Origin: Candidatus Woesearchaeota archaeon
GTDB lineage: Archaea; Nanobdellota; Nanobdellia; Woesearchaeales; GW2011-AR9
DNA length: 64,000 bases
NCBI GenBank assembly: GCA_018302605.1
Contig: JAGVZN010000021.1
Location: 14,157-78,156, forward strand
Reading direction: 5' to 3'
Shown: one piece after another, positions 7,223 through 28,968 of the stretch
Numbering within the stretch: the stretch's first letter is position 1
Layout of the letters: every line of letters begins with the position of its first letter
Notes under the pieces: model-generated
What the model saw: the letters and a program-made list of their open reading frames with translations, nothing else
What the model was told of the DNA's origin: nothing
Database searches by the model: none
Made by a program: the position numbers and the translations under genes

Positions 7223-8150
7223 TCATCTCGTTCGACCCCGAGAAAGAGGCGATTTATCTTCTGAATTTTTTTTCAATATGATTAAATTTATAAATACCAA
7301 ACTTATACTTCCCTCTATGCCAATCACCAATACAGACAGACCAAAAGTGAATGTAAGCGTAAATGAAGTTCGCAGACAAGAAGTTCGTCCAGAAAATTCT
7401 TTTCGTTTTGCCGAACCCGTTCAGCCGGAACAGAAAAGAGAAAACAGGTCTGAGGAACCCGAACGTCGGGCAGAAGCAAGAGAACCGCGCGCACCGCGGG
7501 AGATTCAGGTCAGCATCAGGCCTTGGAAAGTATTGAAATTATTCCTGATCCTGCTGGTGTTTTCCAGTGTTTTCTTTGCCGGGCGCTGGAGCGCTGACGG
7601 AACGGACATATTTAGTTTCTCTTCACCAGGACCGACGGCAGCAGCTGTTTCCGAAAAAGCTGTGGAAAAAGAAACAGTCCCGGCAGCAACAGTGAAATCA
7701 GCCGTAGACGAAGCAGCGCTTCCCGCAGAAGAGGGTAAAGTTGAAGCACCGGCGAGTGATGTTCCCGAGAAAGTGATCACCAAATACAGCAAAGTGGCCT
7801 TGGCCGTGACCGCTGTCAAAAAAGAATGGTATGACGGCTGGGGGAAAATCGTACAACTATCAGTCACGATCAAGAATAATGAAGAAGGAACAATCAAACC
7901 AGCGTATTTGGTGATGAATGTCGAAGGCTATGATGATTTTGATAAGCGTGTGCCTCTCCCCGGGAAAGCACAAGAGATTAAAGCGGGAGTAAAATTAGAG
8001 GAAAATGTCAATATCCCTAACGGCTTTGCCTATAATCCGGCAACAAAAGGGATCGGTGACATGGGCACTGTCCATATCATCACGCGGCTCTATGACGAAC
8101 GTGATGTCCTGATTACCACTTTTGGGACGGATTATGATTTACGGGGATAG
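7212..8150 (+). CDS. hypothetical membrane-anchored protein
   Basis: Arg/Glu-rich N-terminal region, one TM helix (LKLFLILLVFSSVFFAG), then an extracellular domain; start may be at the internal MIKFINT. Confidence 0.45.
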   Translation: MFTNHLVRPRERGDLSSEFFFNMIKFINTKLILPSMPITNTDRPKVNVSVNEVRRQEVRPENSFRFAEPVQPEQKRENRSEEPERRAEAREPRAPREIQVSIRPWKVLKLFLILLVFSSVFFAGRWSADGTDIFSFSSPGPTAAAVSEKAVEKETVPAATVKSAVDEAALPAEEGKVEAPASDVPEKVITKYSKVALAVTAVKKEWYDGWGKIVQLSVTIKNNEEGTIKPAYLVMNVEGYDDFDKRVPLPGKAQEIKAGVKLEENVNIPNGFAYNPATKGIGDMGTVHIITRLYDERDVLITTFGTDYDLRG

Positions 8151-8195
8151 ATTGGTTGTTTGATTTGTTGTTTCATCTTTTGGGGGATTAAGTAT

Positions 8196-8462
8196 TTAAT
8201 GAAGTTTAGTTCTTACTTCTCCACCAAGCTTTGTAAGCTTATAGAACCGTCCTTTCGTTTCTTTTGGATTAATGCAGACGGCCAATCCTTTCTTCACAAA
8301 CTCACGTAAGACATCAGAAACGCTGTTACGAGTAATCTTAGGATTATACTTAAGTGCCTCTTGGTAAATTTGTGCTGGGATTTTACTTCCATCCATGACT
8401 TTGATGATTACACGACGTTGAGAGCCACGAACAACCCAAGAAAGTAGTTCTATCTGTTTCAT
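8196..8462 (-). CDS. small winged-helix DNA-binding protein
   Basis: 88 aa; helix-turn-helix-like SVSDVLREFVKKGL followed by a wing (GRFYKLTKLG). Confidence 0.5.
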   Translation of the reverse strand: MKQIELLSWVVRGSQRRVIIKVMDGSKIPAQIYQEALKYNPKITRNSVSDVLREFVKKGLAVCINPKETKGRFYKLTKLGGEVRTKLH

Positions 8463-8569
8463 ACACCCAGAAATAGTGTGAATATATATCGGTTTTTCAC
8501 TTAATATACACCAAAATATTTAAAAAGAAAGAGATTATAATTATAAATTGGCAAATAAAGGGGATTAAC

Positions 8570-8851
8570 ATGAAAACAACAACATTAACGCTCGGTCTTG
8601 ATGATGAAGAACGTCCAAGAGGATATCGGAAAGAAGTAAAGCGAGAAGCTTCAGAAAAACCAATAGAAAAAGAAGCTGTTACCTTTGGAAGGATTTGTGG
8701 TATTGCGTCCGTGTTATCCGCATCTTATTTCCCCGGAGGAAGTTTCATAGTCGGGCTAACAGGATTAATCTATAGCAAACATGAGACCACCGCAAACATA
8801 CTGAACGTAATCGGTCTGATACTCGCTGTAGTAATGTTCGTATTCGGTTAG
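8570..8851 (+). CDS. small membrane protein
   Basis: 93 aa with two predicted TM segments at the C-terminus. Confidence 0.4.
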   Translation: MKTTTLTLGLDDEERPRGYRKEVKREASEKPIEKEAVTFGRICGIASVLSASYFPGGSFIVGLTGLIYSKHETTANILNVIGLILAVVMFVFG

Positions 8852-8879
8852 AATTACAACAGATTATGGGATTGATAAT

Positions 8880-9272
8880 ATGAAAGAACAATTAAAAAAG
8901 TTTTCACTGGAACATCCTGGAATAACGGTTTTAGTTATTTTCATCGTAGCTATAATCCTGATCGCTCTTTTAATGAATACGACCAGAACTAAATCGGCCA
9001 AAGAACCAACGATCTATGAATGTTGGAATAGGCAACTCGTAAGAGACCTTTCAAAATGTCCCGAGGAGCCGTCTCTACCAGAAAGCAAGAAAAAAGAGAT
9101 TTGTAACGATTTGATTGCCTATTTCCAATATTGTAACGATGCGGGCAATAGTCAGAATTCCTGCTCGACCACTGCACACGAGAAGATTTTACGCATCTAT
9201 AAAATCACAAACGAACAAATTATAGAGGTCGTGGATTACTGTACTAAAAACATGGAAAAGCTAGATATTTAG
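8880..9272 (+). CDS. membrane-anchored Cys-containing protein
   Basis: N-terminal TM helix (ITVLVIFIVAIILIALL) then a Cys-rich ectodomain. Confidence 0.45.
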   Translation: MKEQLKKFSLEHPGITVLVIFIVAIILIALLMNTTRTKSAKEPTIYECWNRQLVRDLSKCPEEPSLPESKKKEICNDLIAYFQYCNDAGNSQNSCSTTAHEKILRIYKITNEQIIEVVDYCTKNMEKLDI

Positions 9273-9315
9273 AACAGGTAATTATTTAAATGAATAAATA
9301 AGCCGGAGAGATAAG

Positions 9316-10599
9316 ATGATAAAAGAGGTGTTTGTATTAGGGATATTATTTCTTTTTCTCGTTGCCTGTGCACCTCAGGAAGCATTGGCGGGAAAAGCAT
9401 ATACAGATCTTTCTTACGAACAGAAACAACAGTATTGGGCGTGTATTAACGAATGCAACAAAATAGGTTACACGAGAGGTTGTGCACTGGATTGTATGGC
9501 TAAAGCTGAAAAATATGCCCCTGATCAGAACTGGTGTCAGGATCCAGATGGGAAAGATTATTTCACAAAAAACAGCGTAGCCTCTAATCTTTACCCTGTT
9601 CCTAAGGAAGATTCTTGTGTAACTATCGGTGGAAAGACATATCTCTTAGAAGGGATATGCTCTTCTAACAAATATGGTTGGATTCAGAAAAATTGTGCTG
9701 AACTCGGCAATTACAAATGCGTGGAGGGGGCATGTGTTGTTGCGAACCATCCTCCTGTCTTAGATCAGATAGAAGATCAAACGATTACTCTCGGGGAAAC
9801 TATTTCATTCACACTTACCGCTTCTGATCCCGATGGTGATAAACTGGTGTTTTCTGGCAAAATCCCGAAAGATTCTTCTCTTAACAAAGAAACGGGAGAG
9901 TTCAGCTGGAAGCCTACGGCTGCGGGTGAATATACGTTAATTTTCCGTGTGAACGATGGGAAATTATATGATAAGAAATACGTTGGAATTGTGGCGGTTA
10001 AACCAGTTAACAAAGAATGTATGTATGATGATTTCTCAGGAATCAGTTTAGACCTGAGTAAGTGGATTGAAGAAAAAAGGGAGGACGATCCTAGTTTTCC
10101 GGATATTCATGAAATCTCTTCAGAAAAAGGAACGTACCATATAGTAACGGTCACGAAAGGAGATAAGAGTGTTCAATTAATTACTATAAAAACTTTTGAT
10201 GTTGGCGAAGTTCTTGAGTTCGATTTAATATATAATGGTGGCGAGGGCAACCATATTGCTGGTTTTTCCGGGATCGTAATCGATGGGAAGAAAATTGAAC
10301 CGATTCAAAGCTATCTAAAGAATAATTGTCCTACTCCGAATCCGGGCTGTGGACGAGTGGGAGAATTCAATGGTATTCCCGATGTAGGAAGTGCTAAAGG
10401 GAAATATCATCTGAAGTTAGAATTCCTCGGGGATGGAATTAAATCAATAATAATTAGACCGGACGGATCAGTAATAGAACATGAATATACTGGACTGAAA
10501 GCACCACACCAGCCCATTTTCTTAGCTATGACGGGGGCTAATGGGCTAATGGATTTTGAATTTGACAATTTTGATATCCCTGGATGTTTAGAGAATTGA
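9316..10599 (+). CDS. secreted Cys-rich protein with cadherin-like / putative Ig repeat
   Basis: Signal peptide MIKEVFVLGILFLFLVACA; many Cys; PPVLDQIEDQTITLGETISFTLTASDPDGDKL resembles dystroglycan-type cadherin-like repeats. Confidence 0.55.
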   Translation: MIKEVFVLGILFLFLVACAPQEALAGKAYTDLSYEQKQQYWACINECNKIGYTRGCALDCMAKAEKYAPDQNWCQDPDGKDYFTKNSVASNLYPVPKEDSCVTIGGKTYLLEGICSSNKYGWIQKNCAELGNYKCVEGACVVANHPPVLDQIEDQTITLGETISFTLTASDPDGDKLVFSGKIPKDSSLNKETGEFSWKPTAAGEYTLIFRVNDGKLYDKKYVGIVAVKPVNKECMYDDFSGISLDLSKWIEEKREDDPSFPDIHEISSEKGTYHIVTVTKGDKSVQLITIKTFDVGEVLEFDLIYNGGEGNHIAGFSGIVIDGKKIEPIQSYLKNNCPTPNPGCGRVGEFNGIPDVGSAKGKYHLKLEFLGDGIKSIIIRPDGSVIEHEYTGLKAPHQPIFLAMTGANGLMDFEFDNFDIPGCLEN

Positions 10600-10842
10600 A
10601 TGGGCTAATGAGTTTCTATCATTTTTAATCTCCTGTATTAATCTGATTATCTCTTGATACATCTTTAACTGTTGTTCTTTCCATTCTTTTGCTTCTATTT
10701 TCTCTAGTGCTTCTATTGAAGAATTTAAACGCTCTTCAATGTTTTCAAATCCCATCCATTCTTTAACCCAAGCTTTTCTATTTTCGGGTGAACCGTCATT
10801 CCATTGTCGTAAATCCATAATTTTCATTTTAGTCACTCTCAA
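10588..10842 (-). CDS. hypothetical protein
   Basis: 84-aa ORF at the distal end of the integrase gene string. Confidence 0.35.
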   Translation of the reverse strand: MRVTKMKIMDLRQWNDGSPENRKAWVKEWMGFENIEERLNSSIEALEKIEAKEWKEQQLKMYQEIIRLIQEIKNDRNSLAHSIL

Positions 10843-10897
10843 TAATTAATTTCTCAGGACTATAATCTTATTTACTTGTGGTTTCTTGTTCATAAGA

Positions 10898-11200
10898 TCA
10901 ATCCCGTTGAAAAAATTTGACATGTGGAAAGAGGATATATACTCCTCCATATAGTAAAGCCACAACTAAAGCAGTATCATCTTTGAGGATAACTGGTGTG
11001 AACCCTATGGCTGCAAAGCCAATAAAGCCAACAGCATAAAGAACTGCATATAAACCTAGGACCAATTCAGAAGCGTCCTTAAAATTATTTAGAACGCGAT
11101 CTCGCTCCATCTTCTTCGTTTTTGTATAATCATTTAAGGAATTAAAAAACCAAACAACGATTGCTAATAAGAGTAAGGCAAAAGAATGATTTAATGTCAT
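10898..11200 (-). CDS. small membrane protein
   Basis: 100 aa with 3 predicted TM helices; start ATG overlaps the stop of the upstream peptide gene (ATGA). Confidence 0.45.
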   Translation of the reverse strand: MTLNHSFALLLLAIVVWFFNSLNDYTKTKKMERDRVLNNFKDASELVLGLYAVLYAVGFIGFAAIGFTPVILKDDTALVVALLYGGVYILFPHVKFFQRD

Positions 11201-11337
11201 TTTTTCTTCACAATAGTTACTGTTACAAAACCAATAACTCCTCCAATTATTGCTCCAATAGTTCCGCTAGTACTTCCGCCAATAAGAGCCCCAAGTGCTA
11301 GCCCAGCTAATTCTTCGTTACCTTTTTCTTTTGCCAT
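11197..11337 (-). CDS. 46-aa glycine-zipper membrane peptide
   Basis: MAKEKGNEELAGLALGALIGGSTSGTIGAIIGGVIGFVTVTIVKKK; not in the ORF track (under 60 aa); translationally coupled to the 10898-11200 gene. Confidence 0.4.
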   Translation of the reverse strand: MAKEKGNEELAGLALGALIGGSTSGTIGAIIGGVIGFVTVTIVKKK

Positions 11338-11387
11338 TTTTTATCAATCTAAATATAGATTCAATCGTTTAAATGTGTTATGAAGAA

Positions 11388-12710
11388 TTATTCACGTCTA
11401 AACTCTTTAAACTTCTCCCCAAATACCTGCAACCCCGATGTCGATAACATCGCTTGACTATTACCAAACTGAACCATTGTCGGCTGTGGCAAGCCCTGTG
11501 CTAACTGTTGTAATGCCTGTTCCATCTGAGTAACCCTTGATAATAACTCCCTTTCTCTCTCTTGTGCTCTTTCGTCTATTCGAATTCCTGCTTCTAATGT
11601 AAGCGGAGACTTACATCTATCACAAAAGATGAGGATACTTTGATTTTGAAAATTACACCGTGGACAAATGCGAGGTTTTAATACATCCTCTTTTTCAGTA
11701 GTTTTCGGTTTAATTCCCTCTACTTCACAGTAAGCATCATCGATGTCCTTATCGCTGAGCTGGAGATAAACGCCCTCTAATGTTCTCGTTGTAATGCCAT
11801 GCCTTTTGGCATTCTTGACCAAATCAAAGCCCCTCCTTTGAAGATCCGTAATCGCAAAGTATCTTCCCATATGCCAGAAGAGATTTTTCTTGATTTCTGC
11901 ACGTTCCGCAATTCTTCGAATAAAAGCAGTATAGCCAATGGGTGACAGTTTCCTTGCAAACCAGCCGCCTTGTTCTTTACCAACAAATAAGGGTGCATCT
12001 CCATTCTTCCTGTCGGGATGATCTTTGTTAATCCACTCGCGTAAATACGGTACAGCTCGAACTAACCGAACAGAGCGTCGCTGAGATTTTGATACTTCAA
12101 TCCACACTTTACAGCCCATTTCGTCAAATTCAACATCGCTAAGCTTAACATTTGCAATCTCGTTAGCTCTACAACCCATTTCCACCCAGACCATAATCAA
12201 TGCTCGATCTCGATTACAGGAACAAATAGTAAGCATTCGCTCGATATCCTCAATAGTTGGCAAATCTGATGGCTTATGAGTTCCTTTAATCCTCTCCGGC
12301 TTTAATCGTTCATCTTCTACAACTGCCGGAAAGCCAGAACGCTCTTTAAATTGGTACAACCACTTGTAAAAAGATCGAATTATCACTTTTTTCACAGAGC
12401 GTGAAGAATCTGTTCTCACGTTACCAACAAATTCAATGATTTTCTGCTTATAAGCCTCAATCTCGGTATCGATGGGTTTAAACGGCATCTTGAGGGATAA
12501 GCCAAGTTCTCGGAGGCACAAGAGGGTATTGCGAATGGTCGAGGTTTTTATCCTACCACCGCGACTACTTGGCTTGTTTTCCAAGTACTCTTTAAAGAGG
12601 TTAAGTGCTTCCAACTGTTCCACAGAGAGTTTACCCCTCCATTTCGAGTTATGATGACCTTCGTCGAAGCCATTGGTCAAAATCTTCCTAATTTCTTCTT
12701 CTGAACCCAT
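11388..12710 (-). CDS. tyrosine recombinase / integrase with C-terminal zinc ribbon
   Basis: Catalytic region HMGRYFAITDLQRRG-x18-Y; arm-binding and core-binding regions; C-terminal CPRC-x13-CDRC ribbon and a coiled coil not present in archaeal XerA. Confidence 0.8.
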   Translation of the reverse strand: MGSEEEIRKILTNGFDEGHHNSKWRGKLSVEQLEALNLFKEYLENKPSSRGGRIKTSTIRNTLLCLRELGLSLKMPFKPIDTEIEAYKQKIIEFVGNVRTDSSRSVKKVIIRSFYKWLYQFKERSGFPAVVEDERLKPERIKGTHKPSDLPTIEDIERMLTICSCNRDRALIMVWVEMGCRANEIANVKLSDVEFDEMGCKVWIEVSKSQRRSVRLVRAVPYLREWINKDHPDRKNGDAPLFVGKEQGGWFARKLSPIGYTAFIRRIAERAEIKKNLFWHMGRYFAITDLQRRGFDLVKNAKRHGITTRTLEGVYLQLSDKDIDDAYCEVEGIKPKTTEKEDVLKPRICPRCNFQNQSILIFCDRCKSPLTLEAGIRIDERAQERERELLSRVTQMEQALQQLAQGLPQPTMVQFGNSQAMLSTSGLQVFGEKFKEFRRE

Positions 12711-24436: not shown

Positions 24437-24858
24437 TGTTCTGGGAAAAGATCTAATTGAGCGAAATAATTTCCCGCATAGCTTTTAATCGTGTCAACCA
24501 CTTGGTAATAATTGCCCGGCCAATCTGGCGCTGGAAATTCAATAGTTGGTGCTTTCTCAAATGTCAGTTCTCTATATAGGGAATCTGCATAAGCTTGGGT
24601 TTTAAATGTGACACGAGGATCTAATGCGAAAATGCCGTGAATGATGACCAAGCTTGTTTTCGGGTAAAGAGTCTCTATCGGAACTTCCCGGTCACCTGTT
24701 CCGACGTGTTTTTGGATAATGAGATCATAATTAATTCTGCACGGAAATTGTCGGGCAAGAAATGTAAACATTCTCTCTATTCTTCTTTGACTGAGTGGTT
24801 CCAGAAACTGCAGCGTTAGTCTTTTTTCTAAATTCTCTAAAGAATCGTCCATTTTCAT
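24433..24858 (-). CDS. hypothetical protein
   Basis: 141-aa ORF convergent with the aCPSF1 gene. Confidence 0.4.
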   Translation of the reverse strand: MKMDDSLENLEKRLTLQFLEPLSQRRIERMFTFLARQFPCRINYDLIIQKHVGTGDREVPIETLYPKTSLVIIHGIFALDPRVTFKTQAYADSLYRELTFEKAPTIEFPAPDWPGNYYQVVDTIKSYAGNYFAQLDLFPEH

Positions 24859-24980
24859 CTCTCAAACACCACAGGATATAAACCTTTATAAAATCGATAT
24901 TCTCTCATCTCTTCATGCTAGCAAAACAGATTGACCTGGAAGACGCCAAACACGATAAATTATTCTATCTTAGGTGAGCG

Positions 24981-25325
24981 ATGGGATCCGGAAAGACCTG
25001 GGGTTATCTCGTTGGGGTGTTTTCTGCCGCAATAGTTGGTTATTATGCCGGCCAATGGGTTCATACTCCCCAATGGGCATGGACTGCAGATGAGAATGGT
25101 GATGGACTCGAGGATATCGTCTTCGAATCCAGAGATGGAAAAACGTCGGTTCTGTATAAAGTTTCTCCCCCCGATGCAGGATACCAAAAATTTCTCTCCG
25201 GAGAAAAAGCAAGCGCGTATTTTAACGAGCGATTATCGGAGGAGAACAGAAAAGATGCACCCTCTCTTAGAGATTTATCTAGCGGGAGATGGAATCTCGA
25301 AACAAAGTGGAGGGAAAGCAATTAA
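24981..25325 (+). CDS. hypothetical membrane-anchored protein
   Basis: N-terminal TM helix (WGYLVGVFSAAIVGYYAG); competes with the overlapping ORF 25036-25497. Confidence 0.35.
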   Translation: MGSGKTWGYLVGVFSAAIVGYYAGQWVHTPQWAWTADENGDGLEDIVFESRDGKTSVLYKVSPPDAGYQKFLSGEKASAYFNERLSEENRKDAPSLRDLSSGRWNLETKWRESN

Positions 25326-25603
25326 TCTCTTCCTTCTGAACTCCAATCTCGCAATCTTTTGGCGTATCTTTCGTAGTCTATTGCCAGAGAAGGGCTATCT
25401 CTTATCTCTTCTTTGGACATACTCCCTCCGTATACAAAGAATCTTTTTTCATCTCTCTCTAACCCGTTTTCTTGACGTCTCCAGCGGACTGTTCTAAAGA
25501 AAATAGTCCCCGCATCATTCTCATAATACTCCCTATCTTTATGCATCTGTGACTTTTGATCAAAACCAAGATACGTCTGGGAAATCTTACGTAATTCTTC
25601 CAT
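25322..25603 (-). CDS. hypothetical protein
   Basis: 93-aa charged ORF. Confidence 0.35.
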   Translation of the reverse strand: MEELRKISQTYLGFDQKSQMHKDREYYENDAGTIFFRTVRWRRQENGLERDEKRFFVYGGSMSKEEIRDSPSLAIDYERYAKRLRDWSSEGRD

Positions 25604-25946
25604 TGGAGTTAGATTTTAGCAATCTTTTAAAAGTGTTTTGGAAAGAAAAACCACGCGTATGTATTTTGTTGTTGGCCAAGTGAGAGATAGCATTCGTCAG
25701 ACGAGGCTGGTGGGTTTTCCTGCGGAAGAATATTATAACGTTTTTTAGGCCCCCTCATTTTCTCATTAAGTAATTCCGAAATTTCATTTAACGTATGGAA
25801 TTCCTGTTAAATCCTGCCGACTACGAAGTGGGAGGTACGAGGAGCGTAGCGACGAAGAGTTTTTTGTTGTCGTACATAGAAACACTGATACAGTTTTAGC
25901 ATGTAGTTAAAGAATAGACGGAGGTGGGTCTTGAGTAGGTTATTTG

Positions 25947-26633
25947 TTAAAAGGTCGCCGTTTTCCATAGAATGTCAAAGAAACTCCTATAAGAATCTGC
26001 TACTTGTTTGCTTCTCATTAGAAAAGCTATGGGATCAGATGACCAGTTGATAATAGCAACTTTATCATGAGATAATTTTAATTCTTCTTCTCTTTTTTGC
26101 TTTCTAACAGTCTCATTAAAGATTATTTTTAGTGGGATTTTTGATTCTATTCTTCTGTCATGAAAATGGATAAAGTAAGCGTGAAATAACTCTTTAAATT
26201 TTCCAGTTGCTCCAAAAACAAACCAAGGCTTTCCCTCTTTTAAAATATCTTCAAAGATAGATTTGAGCCCTTTCTTACTTTTGTAGAGAGTTCCCTCCTG
26301 TTCTTCTTTTGAGAGCTTTCTTTTTAATTGAAGTTCTGGAAGAAATTGTTTTAGTTTTTCTTCTTTATCTATTAGATCTTGTTTCTTAGATTCAAGATAT
26401 TCTAGCAATCTGTCCGGATCTTGAGCCTCAAAATACTTTCTGTTAGCTTTAATAACGTAAGAAACAAGACCTTTGCCTATTAGCAAATCAATAATATCAT
26501 AAACTGCTGCCCGATGCATTCCTACTTTTTTGATTAAAGGGCCAGCAGCAGTGCTTCCTAATTCCAACAGGGCTAAGTAAACTTTTATTTCGTTTTTGGT
26601 AAGTCCTAATTCTTCCAATAAGGCAGTGTCCAT
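25947..26633 (-). CDS. TrmB-family transcriptional regulator
   Basis: N-terminal LGLTKNEIKVYLALLELGSTAAGPLIKKVGMHRAAVYDIIDLLIGKGLV winged HTH typical of TrmB. Confidence 0.7.
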   Translation of the reverse strand: MDTALLEELGLTKNEIKVYLALLELGSTAAGPLIKKVGMHRAAVYDIIDLLIGKGLVSYVIKANRKYFEAQDPDRLLEYLESKKQDLIDKEEKLKQFLPELQLKRKLSKEEQEGTLYKSKKGLKSIFEDILKEGKPWFVFGATGKFKELFHAYFIHFHDRRIESKIPLKIIFNETVRKQKREEELKLSHDKVAIINWSSDPIAFLMRSKQVADSYRSFFDILWKTATF

Positions 26634-26733
26634 TCCCTATTAAAAACACCCGTTCTTTTTATAGTTTTCGTTTTTGTCATAAGTTTTACTTATTACATTA
26701 ATTTAAATACAACCAATCGGTTTCTATCCTCCA

Positions 26734-27210
26734 GTGATTAAAATGGAAAATCAAAAAAGACCAACCGGTTCAGTGTTAACTGCTTATATCTCTGATTGTG
26801 TAAGAAGTACTTATAATCAAATTAATAGGGGTTATGAAGCTGGAAGAACCATCGCGTTCAATACAAGAAGACTAAAAGAACGAGAAGGCTCAAATTCTTG
26901 TCTAAAATACTCTCATGCATTATTGAGAGAAGTGGAGAGAATTACATACGATACGAAAGCAGTAAATCTTGGTTTCCAGTTATACAGATTTCTAAATCAC
27001 TTTGATTGTAAGATAATTGATAGAAATGTAAACTCAGCAGAAGAATACATTAAAAATAATCCTGATCCTGAAATTAAAGTTGGAAGCAAAGGTGGAATAG
27101 AATGTATAATCACATTAGCACAAGATGCAGCAGATGAAGTTAATAGAAACTCTGAAATTGGTGGAAGACCTAAAGTTCAAATGAAATCTTTTCCAGATTG
27201 GAGGTACTGA
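26734..27210 (+). CDS. hypothetical protein (AT-rich islet gene 1)
   Basis: 158 aa; no recognisable motif. Confidence 0.45.
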   Translation: MIKMENQKRPTGSVLTAYISDCVRSTYNQINRGYEAGRTIAFNTRRLKEREGSNSCLKYSHALLREVERITYDTKAVNLGFQLYRFLNHFDCKIIDRNVNSAEEYIKNNPDPEIKVGSKGGIECIITLAQDAADEVNRNSEIGGRPKVQMKSFPDWRY

Positions 27211-27755
27211 TTAAGATGAAAATTATTAGCCCCGGAATGAGAGAAGGACTTGTGTACCAAAGAACAACAGTTTGGACGGCATCTCATACACTTGCTATGA
27301 GAAAGGAAGCTTACCGCTTACTAAAAGATATTGAGCATTGCCCAATAAACGAGTGGGTAGAATCGCATGATTGGAGTTGGGTTACTGATCCAGAACAAAA
27401 AGCTAGGGCTATTCAATCTGAAATAAACTGGAGGGAACATATGCCAGAAGAACTTGAAAGTTATCGTTGTCATTATAGTTGGATAGTCGCCTACCAAGAT
27501 CCTGATGAGGAACCGCATGAGTGGCGATATGGGAAAATTTATCCATATATCAAAGAAGAAAATTTAGAAGTCGCAATAGATAAAGCTGCTGCTGTTTTCT
27601 CCCAAGATGCAGTAATAAGATCTATAGAAAAAACGAGATTTGGGCAGGAAGCCAGTGATAGGCTTAGGGAGTACCCTGTTCCAGATGGTGTCTTGCAATA
27701 TATTAGAAATGAGTTTCCAAAAAGAAGGCAAAAATTGATTTTGGAGATTGATTAA
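27198..27755 (+). CDS. hypothetical protein (AT-rich islet gene 2)
   Basis: 185 aa; overlaps gene 1 by 13 nt; Trp/His-rich. Confidence 0.45.
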   Translation: MEVLIKMKIISPGMREGLVYQRTTVWTASHTLAMRKEAYRLLKDIEHCPINEWVESHDWSWVTDPEQKARAIQSEINWREHMPEELESYRCHYSWIVAYQDPDEEPHEWRYGKIYPYIKEENLEVAIDKAAAVFSQDAVIRSIEKTRFGQEASDRLREYPVPDGVLQYIRNEFPKRRQKLILEID

Positions 27756-27841
27756 TATGGGAAGACATGATACTAATACTGACGGATTTGGAATGGGAAG
27801 CCAAAAATTGGAAGAACTTACGGATAATTTAATGGAAATTC

Positions 27842-28528
27842 TTGGTAGAGCGAGATATTCGCAAAAATATCGCCCCTTTCAAGAATCAAGAAGATAGGCT
27901 GAGCACTACTTATGGTAGAGAGCTTCTCTCTTGGTTAAGGGGATTGTTTCAATGGACGCCCTTTGGCATAAGTTATATTCACGAGAATGAGACGGGCGTG
28001 AGTGTTCCTGTTGAATTCAAAGATGGTAAAATAAACAAGACAACATTATATGCTACAGCGGGAGTTTATGCTTTGGAACATGATCCACAACTTTCAATTA
28101 CTACAACAGAGATAGCTATTGTCGCCTCTTTTGAAGATTGTATAAAAGTATATTCTAGAGTGGCCACATCAGGAGGAAAAGGAGAAATAGATATTGAGTG
28201 GTATGAAGAGGTTGCAACCGGACCTGAAGGGGTCGCAAAAGGAGATTATACCTCTTTTGAGAAAAAACGCGGAAGAATAGACAGAAATTGGGATGATATT
28301 GGACTAAGGATTCAGCAAAGATGTGGGAACTTTCTAGGCAAAGCATATAGCGGCCGACCTATTTTCTATGAATATATAGTTGGTGATGATTTCGGTACAG
28401 GTAGAATCGTGAAAGAGCTGAGTGGTACTGGATTTCCAAGCTATATCGGGGGGGATCAAATCCAGGAATTTTATGCCCAATTAGACCTGAGGACTGAGTT
28501 GATTGACGTTAAAGGCGACCACCATTAG
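27842..28528 (+). CDS. hypothetical protein (AT-rich islet gene 3), non-ATG start
   Basis: 228 aa; opens on TTG at 27842 with no in-frame ATG near the 5' end; a 47-aa ATG ORF (27757-27900) overlaps in another frame. Confidence 0.4.
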   Translation: MVERDIRKNIAPFKNQEDRLSTTYGRELLSWLRGLFQWTPFGISYIHENETGVSVPVEFKDGKINKTTLYATAGVYALEHDPQLSITTTEIAIVASFEDCIKVYSRVATSGGKGEIDIEWYEEVATGPEGVAKGDYTSFEKKRGRIDRNWDDIGLRIQQRCGNFLGKAYSGRPIFYEYIVGDDFGTGRIVKELSGTGFPSYIGGDQIQEFYAQLDLRTELIDVKGDHH

Positions 28529-28761
28529 TTTTTAGTGATAGAAAAAAAGCCCCACCCCGTCGATAATTAATTCTTTACATTTTAGTTTTACTTGTTATTG
28601 TAGAAGAGTAGGTGTCAGTGTTTAAAATTGTTAGTATTTCCGTTAAGGAATGATACATAATAGATGACAAAAATTTCACTGAACTGATATTACTTACTAC
28701 CGCTATTATAAATAGGTACGAAACCCATCTATTTCCAGTATGGTTTAAAAAAGCTAAACTT

Positions 28762-28772
28762 TTATAAAAAGG
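28762..28772 (+). promoter_or_regulatory. TATA box ttttataaaaa upstream of the tRNA-Ser region
   Basis: Sits about 25 nt upstream of the duplicated 5' tRNA fragment at 28797, not of the intact tRNA. Confidence 0.35.
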
Positions 28773-28855
28773 ATAACAAATAACTCGTCTAATGCCCAGC
28801 GTCGCATACGCAGAAAGTAGATTTTCTGGTTGCGCCGCAGGCTCTGCTTCGCTAC

Positions 28856-28968
28856 GCCAGCGTCGCATAATCCGGTATTGCGCAGGTCTTGAATCCGCAT
28901 TCTGATTTCAGAACGCAGCACATCAACCTGTCCCTCTGGGATTCCCGGTTCGAATCCGGGCGCTGGCG
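28856..28968 (+). tRNA. tRNA-Ser(TGA), class II, with 31-nt canonical intron
   Basis: GCCAGCG ... CGCTGGC + G73; 3-bp D-stem; anticodon stem CAGGT / ACCTG with loop CTTGAA[intron]A; 13-nt variable arm TCCCTCTGGGATT; T-arm CCCGG-TTCGAAT-CCGGG. Confidence 0.7.

Follow-up and report, generated by a model that had tools for sequence, protein, structure and literature searches.

A probable TrmB-headed module of exchangeable orphan genes in a variable hotspot beside tRNA-Ser of a groundwater Woesearchaeota genome

Regulators of the TrmB family (Pfam PF01978), such as TrmB and TrmBL1 of the Thermococcales, combine a winged helix with a coiled-coil helix and are associated with sugar-transport and glycolysis genes; a palindrome in a divergent promoter, overlapping the TATA boxes, is the classical geometry of TrmB repression. 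Integron arrays are built from a fixed promoter platform followed by promoterless, individually exchangeable open reading frames (ORFs) whose boundaries lie at the ORF ends, while tRNA-adjacent islets and integrative elements place AT-rich, horizontally transferred accessory DNA, the content of which varies among close relatives, beside a tRNA gene. Finally, BrxR/CapW regulators head diverse defence systems (PMC9122601). Here we describe a locus that shares features with each of these. It lies in a stretch of 64,000 nucleotides (nt), hereafter the window, from a Candidatus Woesearchaeota metagenome-assembled genome (MAG; GCA_018302605.1, contig JAGVZN010000021.1, positions 14,157 to 78,156), and consists of a TrmB-like regulator gene divergent to three small orphan genes, g1, g2 and g3, upstream of a tRNA-Ser gene. 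Our analysis suggests that this islet is probably one copy of a horizontally exchanged unit of groundwater Woesearchaeota, termed the TrmB module, within a variable hotspot that extends from aCPSF1 to tRNA-Ser(UGA).

The window proteins are identical to the public entries MBS3169693-702 (J4210 locus tags), and the same locus was found in at least 10 metagenome contigs from groundwater samples. Homology among the related loci starts exactly at the TrmB stop codon, and a conserved tail shared by the window, L017 and L030 reaches position 28698, indicating that the unit in the window spans 25947-28698, with the following parts.

25947-28698: the module as a unit, made up of regulator gene, control region, cargo operon, end element and tail
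25947-26633, minus strand: TrmB-like regulator gene, encoding an N-terminal winged helix, a coiled coil and an uncharacterised C-terminal domain
26634-26742, no strand assigned: divergent control region of 109 nt
26655-26664, minus strand: TATA-like box for TrmB within the control region, a putative promoter element
26675-26682 and 26690-26697: palindrome TGTCATAA-N7-TTATTACA between the two TATA-like boxes in 10 loci, a putative operator
26702-26709: TATA-like box for the cargo within the control region, a putative promoter element
26735-26745, 27208-27218 and 27749-27759, plus strand: junction motif TGATTAAAATG, combining stop codons, a Shine-Dalgarno-like GTGAT and a start, ahead of g1, g2 and g3, respectively
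26743-27210, plus strand: g1, orphan cargo gene of 155 amino acids (aa), start ATG 26743, with the identical protein in at least nine contigs
27216-27755, plus strand: g2, orphan cargo gene of 179 aa, start ATG 27216, with about 17 N-terminal and about 60 C-terminal residues conserved
27757-28497, plus strand: g3, a pseudogene
28511-28551, plus strand: cargo-end element AAAGGCGACCACCATTAGTT...GAAAAAAAGCC with an internal T-run (28531-28535), a putative terminator
28529-28698, no strand assigned: 3' tail of the module, conserved but non-coding, about 170 nt long

TrmB orthologues sharing 74-97% identity are present in 10 loci, and the genes that stand behind them, termed cargo, differ from one locus to the next.

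Window: g1, g2 and g3 (pseudogene)
L016: g1, c138, c290, g2 and c313
L018: g2, c109 and c289
L017: c125, c126, g2 and c72
L030: g3 alone
L053: g2 and g3
L033: g2...
L032: c426
L034: c397
L035: c257 and c391
L036: c297 and c110

The regulator and its promoter front at least 12 unrelated orphan families in differing combinations; profile-profile comparison of the cargo families (hhalign) found them unrelated, with g2/c138 as the sole exception. The head of the unit is constant; each cargo gene behaves as an independent, interchangeable cassette, and unrelated, lineage-specific orphans replace one another behind the head, the breakpoints in several cases falling at the first start codon and the last stop codon. 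An earlier reading of the same DNA, made from the letters and an ORF list only (the sequence-only reading), had proposed that g1, g2 and g3 form a three-gene unit. This was contradicted by the co-occurrence comparison, in which the three genes are found apart or recombined behind the same regulator. Since the genes occur independently and g3 is dead beside intact g1 and g2, the cargo proteins are expected to act separately; our guess is that their functions are accessory, conflict- or niche-related and easily gained or lost. One of the loci, L016 (1-13710; GCA_053531095.1, JAIYRO010000080.1), is a 13.7-kb island rich in TrmB modules, with four TrmB-like paralogues that are 27-38% identical, each with its own divergent orphan cargo, and with two PIN-domain genes and NUDIX, nucleotidyltransferase and Exo_endo_phos genes interspersed.

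Horizontal exchange is supported by synonymous divergence (pS). Compared with the MAG GCA_016181265.1, pS was 0.135 for TrmB, whereas it was saturated for the proteasome gene (0.67), aCPSF1 (0.82) and a 108-aa gene (0.80). The low TrmB value is not an artefact of composition, because paralogous TrmBs are likewise saturated (0.72-0.76). Against L017, core genes gave 0.72-0.84, compared with 0.49 for TrmB and 0.47 for g2. GCA_016181265.1 retains the frame aCPSF1...tRNA-Ser...108-aa gene, but the interval from aCPSF1 to the tRNA is occupied by genes for a MazE/PhoU-like protein, a 144-aa protein and a NUDIX protein; its TrmB, 97% identical and with a control region 95% identical, resides on another contig in front of the unrelated cargo c426. 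Taken together, the synonymous contrast and the refilled frame indicate that a variable hotspot lies upstream of tRNA-Ser, and that the module was exchanged between lineages after their divergence with recent replacement of the cargo. This c426 module (L032, 4519-8830) adjoins a tyrosine recombinase gene (PF00589, 2.6e-40) and an ORF6N-domain gene and is flanked by the inverted repeats AACGGCGACCCCC and GTACTCCTGATTTA (z=6.7 versus shuffles), so that it could be an invertible or mobilisable unit.

Composition agrees with the description of the locus as an AT-rich islet in the sequence-only reading: the GC fraction is 0.33 for TrmB, 0.33 for g1, 0.39 for g2 and 0.40 for g3, compared with 0.443 as the average of the 64-kb window and 0.49-0.50 for the flanking core genes (aCPSF1 and a 721-aa gene). 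Its wider suggestion of a compositionally distinct, horizontally acquired cassette beside a tRNA was likewise supported, by the TrmB synonymous divergence and the changed hotspot content in the relative. Positions 8001-12000 of the window are also AT-rich (GC 0.36-0.40), probably correspond to what had been counted as the first islet, and contain no TrmB-like gene of this regulator's family.

The divergent gene at the head of the unit was correctly assigned to the TrmB family in the sequence-only reading, as evidenced by its PF01978 match (1.4e-13, 50.9 bits versus a cut-off of 25.6) over residues 6-73. A PDB profile search additionally returned TrmB (3qph) at 1.5e-4 over residues 6-137. Like TrmB and TrmBL1, the protein combines the winged helix with a coiled-coil helix, and a palindromic site, to which binding is predicted, lies at the TATA boxes of the divergent promoter region in the window. 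It differs from them in having no match to the sugar-binding C-terminal domain, in fronting orphan cargo instead of sugar-transport or glycolysis genes, and in belonging to a unit that is horizontally exchanged. Orthology with the sugar sensors was not recovered in NCBIfam, where the equivalog scores were 22-40 bits versus cut-offs of 500-650 (TrmBL1, 40.3 bits, cut-off 650; TrmB, 28.6 bits, cut-off 600) and the matches covered the N-terminal 100-140 residues only. No Pfam match was found for residues 75-246, and in PADLOC-DB v2 the helix-turn-helix region matched weakly to a CARF-fusion model (E=0.0011). The regulator is under strong constraint, with a ratio of nonsynonymous to synonymous substitution rates (dN/dS) of 0.04-0.13. 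A search of the literature on TrmB in DPANN archaea found nothing relevant.

The control region keeps 76-99% nucleotide identity in 10 loci irrespective of whether g1, g2, g3, c125 or c426 is the first gene, and the comparison with L033 shows conservation as far as the start codon although the first gene differs. Its palindrome, which differs from the TGM motif of the Thermococcales, leaves a spacing of 5 nt to the TATA box of the cargo and of 10 nt to that of TrmB, a geometry that fits repression by promoter occlusion with autoregulation. A TrmB-like dimer would bind the palindrome and repress the cargo promoter, and probably also its own, until some ligand or signal acts on the uncharacterised C-terminal domain, which is the likely signal input. 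Most archaeal paralogues of the regulator have a divergent neighbour about 100 nt away. Full-length proteobacterial homologues of the 246-aa form of the regulator (24-26% identity, 98% coverage), encoded on Azospirillum and Cupriavidus replicons (L061 and L062), are divergent to ABC-transporter/flavin-reductase and acyl-CoA-type operons of a transport or metabolic nature. From these arrangements, we infer that the regulator family acts locally.

Conserved signals also mark the joints and the end of the cargo. The pattern TGATT[AG]ANATG occurs three times in the 64 kb when both strands are counted, exclusively at the starts of g1, g2 and g3, compared with 0.37 occurrences expected. Of 26 cargo genes inspected elsewhere, most have a close variant ahead of them, in contrast to three core genes, of which none has one. 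The cargo genes are probably translationally coupled. The cargo-end element (written AAGGCGACCNCCATTAGTT...) closes the array in six loci; in five loci it directly adjoins the last stop codon of the cargo. When 389 kb were scanned with up to three mismatches, five matches were obtained, all at cargo ends, compared with 0.2 expected, and 35/37 nt of the element are identical between two L016 paralogous modules whose regulators share 35% identity. The GGCGACC core of the element (28514-28520) recurs inverted at 25953-25959, within the last codons of TrmB (WKTAT), as it does at the TrmB end of L016 module 2 and of L032; the extended similarity is not significant in the window. Downstream, the 3' tail shares 83.5% identity with L030, where it follows g3, and 76% with L017, where it follows g2; no Rfam match to the tail and no convincing covariation on either strand were found. 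One public assembly calls a gene at 28575-28868, a 97-aa minus-strand ORF that overlaps both the tail and the leader of the tRNA; since most differences between loci in the only conserved stretch of this ORF, 27 codons long, are non-synonymous, it probably does not encode a protein.

Gene models within the cargo were revised to the starts ATG 26743, 27216 and 27757, on which public gene calls, homologue alignments and the conserved upstream motif agree. A listing of the longest ORFs (26734-27210, 27198-27755, 27842-28528 and 27748-27897) had given the impression of tight packing, with a 13-nt overlap of g1 and g2 and an 86-nt gap before the third gene. Both are artefacts of having taken the longest ORFs: with its start at 27216, g2 is separated from g1 by 5 nt, and the presumed gap is the 5' part of g3, whose ATG at 27757 lies 1 nt past the g2 stop. 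The observation that the three genes contain no recognisable motifs was confirmed by the absence of significant matches in Pfam, NCBIfam, PHROG or PADLOC. Few relatives exist: a cluster search among 5.8e9 proteins gave 4 for g1, 11 for g2 and 5 for g3. Nevertheless, judged by dN/dS, g1-g3 are genuine genes despite their orphan status. Both g1 (dN/dS 0.35 versus L016) and g2 (0.15-0.26) are intact and under purifying selection.

For g2, an exhaustive HMMER search with its profile against 1.84e9 representatives matched six proteins; besides the g2 cluster, 5/5 matches contain the C-terminal module, of which the conserved stretch reads ...PVPEGVLQYFRKExRKRRQKLIxEID, and 3/5 also the N-terminal 17 residues. 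The short relatives P0051-P0053 keep the first ~17 residues (MxIxSPGxKEGxLYQ) and the last ~60, with the middle replaced or deleted. Such conserved ends around a changed, replaceable middle indicate that g2 behaves as a mosaic. Scanning metagenomes with g2 gave one additional locus. AlphaFold2 modelling of g2 from a 10-sequence alignment reached a mean predicted local distance difference test (pLDDT) score of 41.8, too low for fold comparison. The match of g2 to HindIII in the PDB profile search (E=0.0037) was rejected as spurious, since it aligns past the catalytic region and g2 has no PD-(D/E)XK residues; the same searches gave no credible match for g1 or g3. A 1,033-bp contig from the Joint Genome Institute (JGI) encodes a 268-aa protein, P0048, the first 126 residues of which correspond to g1 (88% identity) and are followed by a PF04187-annotated domain, which points either to recombination within the cargo gene or to chimerism of the contig.

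From the constant head, the junction motif and the end element, it is tempting to propose an integrase-free gene-cassette platform of DPANN archaea, in which a TrmB/promoter head and a 37-nt tail surround exchangeable orphans joined by an 11-nt microhomology or recombination motif, with the whole unit moving between genomes and supplying new genes. We regard this extension as tentative, and the case for a dedicated cassette mechanism is circumstantial. As in integron arrays, ORFs that lack promoters of their own stand behind a fixed promoter platform, can be exchanged one by one and have their boundaries at the ORF ends. Unlike them, there is no IntI-type integrase by the window platform and no attC-like site per cassette; instead of an attI site and an attC per cassette, the module has one end element per array and the 11-nt junction of stop, ribosome site and start, and the window islet contains no recombinase.

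Several points weigh against the module interpretation and its extension. Functional constraint on untranslated regions, combined with ordinary insertions and deletions, could account for the abrupt limits at start and stop codons in place of a dedicated cassette mechanism. Binding of the regulator to the palindrome and co-transcription of the cargo are both deduced from sequence. For most loci, the comparison relies on short metagenomic contigs or on MAG bins, so that some contexts could be mis-binned. No recombinase was found in the window, and flanking inverted repeats are not significant in the window, L016 or L018. Finally, the regulator encoded in the window is a 228-aa form, distinguished from the 246-aa form by an in-frame 54-nt (18-aa) deletion at 26066/26067 that removes IKYLPKPYLSPSTTYIYG and changes Q to H at the junction. 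The 246-aa form is present in all other assemblies of the same population and the 228-aa form is known from this NCBI record only, so that the deletion, confined to this MAG, may represent a minor allele or have arisen in assembly.

An alternative function for the trio would be a novel three-gene defence or addiction system of toxin-antitoxin-like character under TrmB control. The cassette is AT-rich, horizontally exchanged and fast-evolving, with cargo dN/dS 3-5x that of the regulator, several such modules lie among PIN, NUDIX and nucleotidyltransferase genes in L016, and a conserved regulator before varied cargo recalls the BrxR/CapW-headed defence islands (PMC9122601). The likeness to BrxR/CapW is that members of a single conserved family of winged-helix regulators stand immediately ahead of many gene sets that are unrelated and can be exchanged; the module regulator, however, belongs to another domain family with no WYL domain and an archaeal DPANN context, and its cargo has no match to known defence proteins. 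In PADLOC-DB v2, g1, g2, g3 and nine of ten other cargo proteins had no match, and the tenth gave a marginal one to DruB (E=0.0075, 13 bits); no cargo protein of the other loci had a significant Pfam or PADLOC match, which leaves about 15 cargo families with no significant PADLOC, Pfam or PHROG match. Neither a toxin or antitoxin family nor a conserved toxin/antitoxin pairing was recovered: g3 stands alone in L030, g2 occurs with no g1 in L018, L033 and L053, and g1 and g2 are separated in L016. Moreover, g3 is dead while g1 and g2 persist, the neighbours of the window islet are housekeeping genes, and in bacteria the operons controlled by homologues of the regulator serve metabolism or transport. 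A dedicated three-gene defence system is thus unlikely, while a conflict-related role of individual cassettes is possible.

The position of the islet at a tRNA gene suggested another explanation, namely a decayed virus or plasmid integrated at tRNA-Ser, with TrmB as its repressor and a duplicated 13-nt tRNA fragment as the scar of the attachment site. The surroundings of the module are as follows.

24437-25946, no strand assigned: remaining variable hotspot between aCPSF1 and the module, with three more small orphan ORFs, none of them in the relative L019
24433-24858 (minus strand), 24981-25325 (plus strand) and 25322-25603 (minus strand): the three small orphan ORFs
28761-28770, plus strand: TATA-like box
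28796-28808, plus strand: copy of the tRNA fragment, about 25 nt after this box; the true tRNA start follows 47 nt further
28856-28968, plus strand: tRNA-Ser(UGA), interrupted by an intron of about 33 nt and matched over the full length of the Rfam model RF00005 (43.6 bits); conserved right border of the hotspot

The tRNA was identified as tRNA-Ser because of its anticodon UGA and long variable arm, and a 33-nt insert is located in the anticodon loop; ARAGORN, run on the window, did not detect it at 28856-28968. Its duplicated 5' fragment, already recognised in the sequence-only reading, was verified as the 13-nt repeat CCAGCGTCGCATA at 28796-28808 and 28857-28869, the latter being the tRNA 5' end. 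The window tRNA is 92% identical to L019 7801-7899, where a TATA box lies about 30 nt upstream of the tRNA with no duplicate fragment. The tRNA-Ser of L019 (7801-7960, GCA_016181265.1) matches the window until the T-arm, then has about 45 extra bases and a second TTCAAGCCCG-like stretch; the extra bases may represent another intron or reflect disruption of the 3' end.

Besides this adjacency to a tRNA with a duplicated fragment, the AT-rich composition, the pseudogenisation and internal deletion, and the L032 module with its significant inverted repeats, tyrosine recombinase and ORF6N neighbour would fit an integrated remnant. Against it, no integrase, recombinase, replication or structural genes were found in or near the window islet (ORF list and family search), and the 13-nt copies enclose 47 nt instead of the islet, with no third copy in the 64 kb, so that neither an integrase nor flanking attachment (att) repeats mark an integration. 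Relatives of g1, g2 or g3 were absent from IMG/VR, GenBank phages and PLSDB: IMG/VR scans with g2, g3 and TrmB were negative, as were tblastn searches of GenBank phages and PLSDB with those cargo genes that were tested, and TrmB found only chromid copies of ~25% identity in PLSDB. An 18-mer of the control region had seven chance matches in IMG/VR with no TrmB nearby, and the end element had none. With other module copies lying away from tRNAs, an integrated remnant is quite improbable. The islet shares with tRNA-adjacent integrative elements the AT-rich accessory DNA beside a tRNA, the variable content among close relatives and the horizontal transfer, and differs from them in having no integrase, in having no att repeats around it, and in occurring as a module also away from tRNAs. 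A 16-nt inverted repeat, 88% complementary, at 25844-25859 and 28842-28857 encloses the islet, its right arm adjoining the tRNA 5' end. Considered as a border, it was dismissed as within chance by alignment statistics, as was a similar 15-mer beside TrmB in L032.

The third cargo gene, g3, is present in the window in pieces.

27757-28497, plus strand: g3 pseudogene, ancestral frame of about 243 aa; the repaired protein aligns end to end with the homologues P0002-P0005
27757-27897, plus strand: first fragment, a 46-aa ORF
27842-28528, plus strand: second fragment, a Met-less 228-aa ORF
27879-27892, plus strand: first frameshift, a 7-nt tandem duplication (TCAAGAA-TCAAGAA), from DNA alignment with the intact L030, L031 and L053
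28448-28454, plus strand: second frameshift, a G7 run that has five bases in intact homologues (GGGGG in L030, GGAGG in L031)

The homologues P0002-P0005 are single ORFs of 225-247 aa, with N-termini that match the 46-aa ORF and remainders that match the 228-aa ORF; P0005 has a separate 19-residue internal deletion. Deleting one copy of the duplication gives back KYRPFQEDRLSTTYGRELL, matching KYRPIQEDRLNTAHGRELL of L053, while the G7 frameshift supplants the conserved C-terminus ...GGSNPGILCxIRP. Repaired g3 shows a dN/dS of 0.17-0.29, and its AlphaFold2 model from a five-sequence alignment (pLDDT 31.6) is too low in confidence for fold comparison. Both lesions occur in the independent assemblies of the population that cover g3 (99.7-100% identity) and are therefore real and fixed, not read errors. 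Hence g3 is one gene in two pieces, inactivated by two frameshifts and not recoded. It had been described as having no ATG, opening on TTG and pointing to a frameshift or programmed recoding. Neither recoding nor a sequencing error is supported: the true start is ATG 27757, and the split is due to the 7-nt duplication and the change from G5 to G7. That g3 is expressed by programmed +1 ribosomal frameshifting, or is split by a sequencing error, is highly improbable: the two ORFs do share 56 nt and stand in the frames that such a shift would require, with CCC TTT C in the shift region, but P0002-P0004 and L053 read uninterrupted across it, so that no shift at a slippery site is conserved among homologues, it coincides with the tandem duplication that they do not have, the second, independent frameshift ruins the C-terminus, and the sequence is identical in independent assemblies from several samples. 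The TrmB module in the window is thus decaying, with g3 dead and an 18-aa internal deletion in the regulator of this MAG.

As a regulator-headed accessory cassette in a tRNA-adjacent hotspot, the islet follows a familiar theme; what is unusual is that conserved signals at the head, the junctions and the tail surround orphans that are freely swapped. For the window itself, the analysis disposes of two suspicions, a recoding event and a three-gene system. DPANN archaea have small genomes rich in unannotated, lineage-specific genes, the gain, regulation and loss of which are little known, and this locus provides a concrete case. If the arrangement is general, its junction and end motifs could guide systematic searches for cassette genes, and the regulator, through operator binding and its derepression signal, would offer an experimental handle on these unannotated genes.

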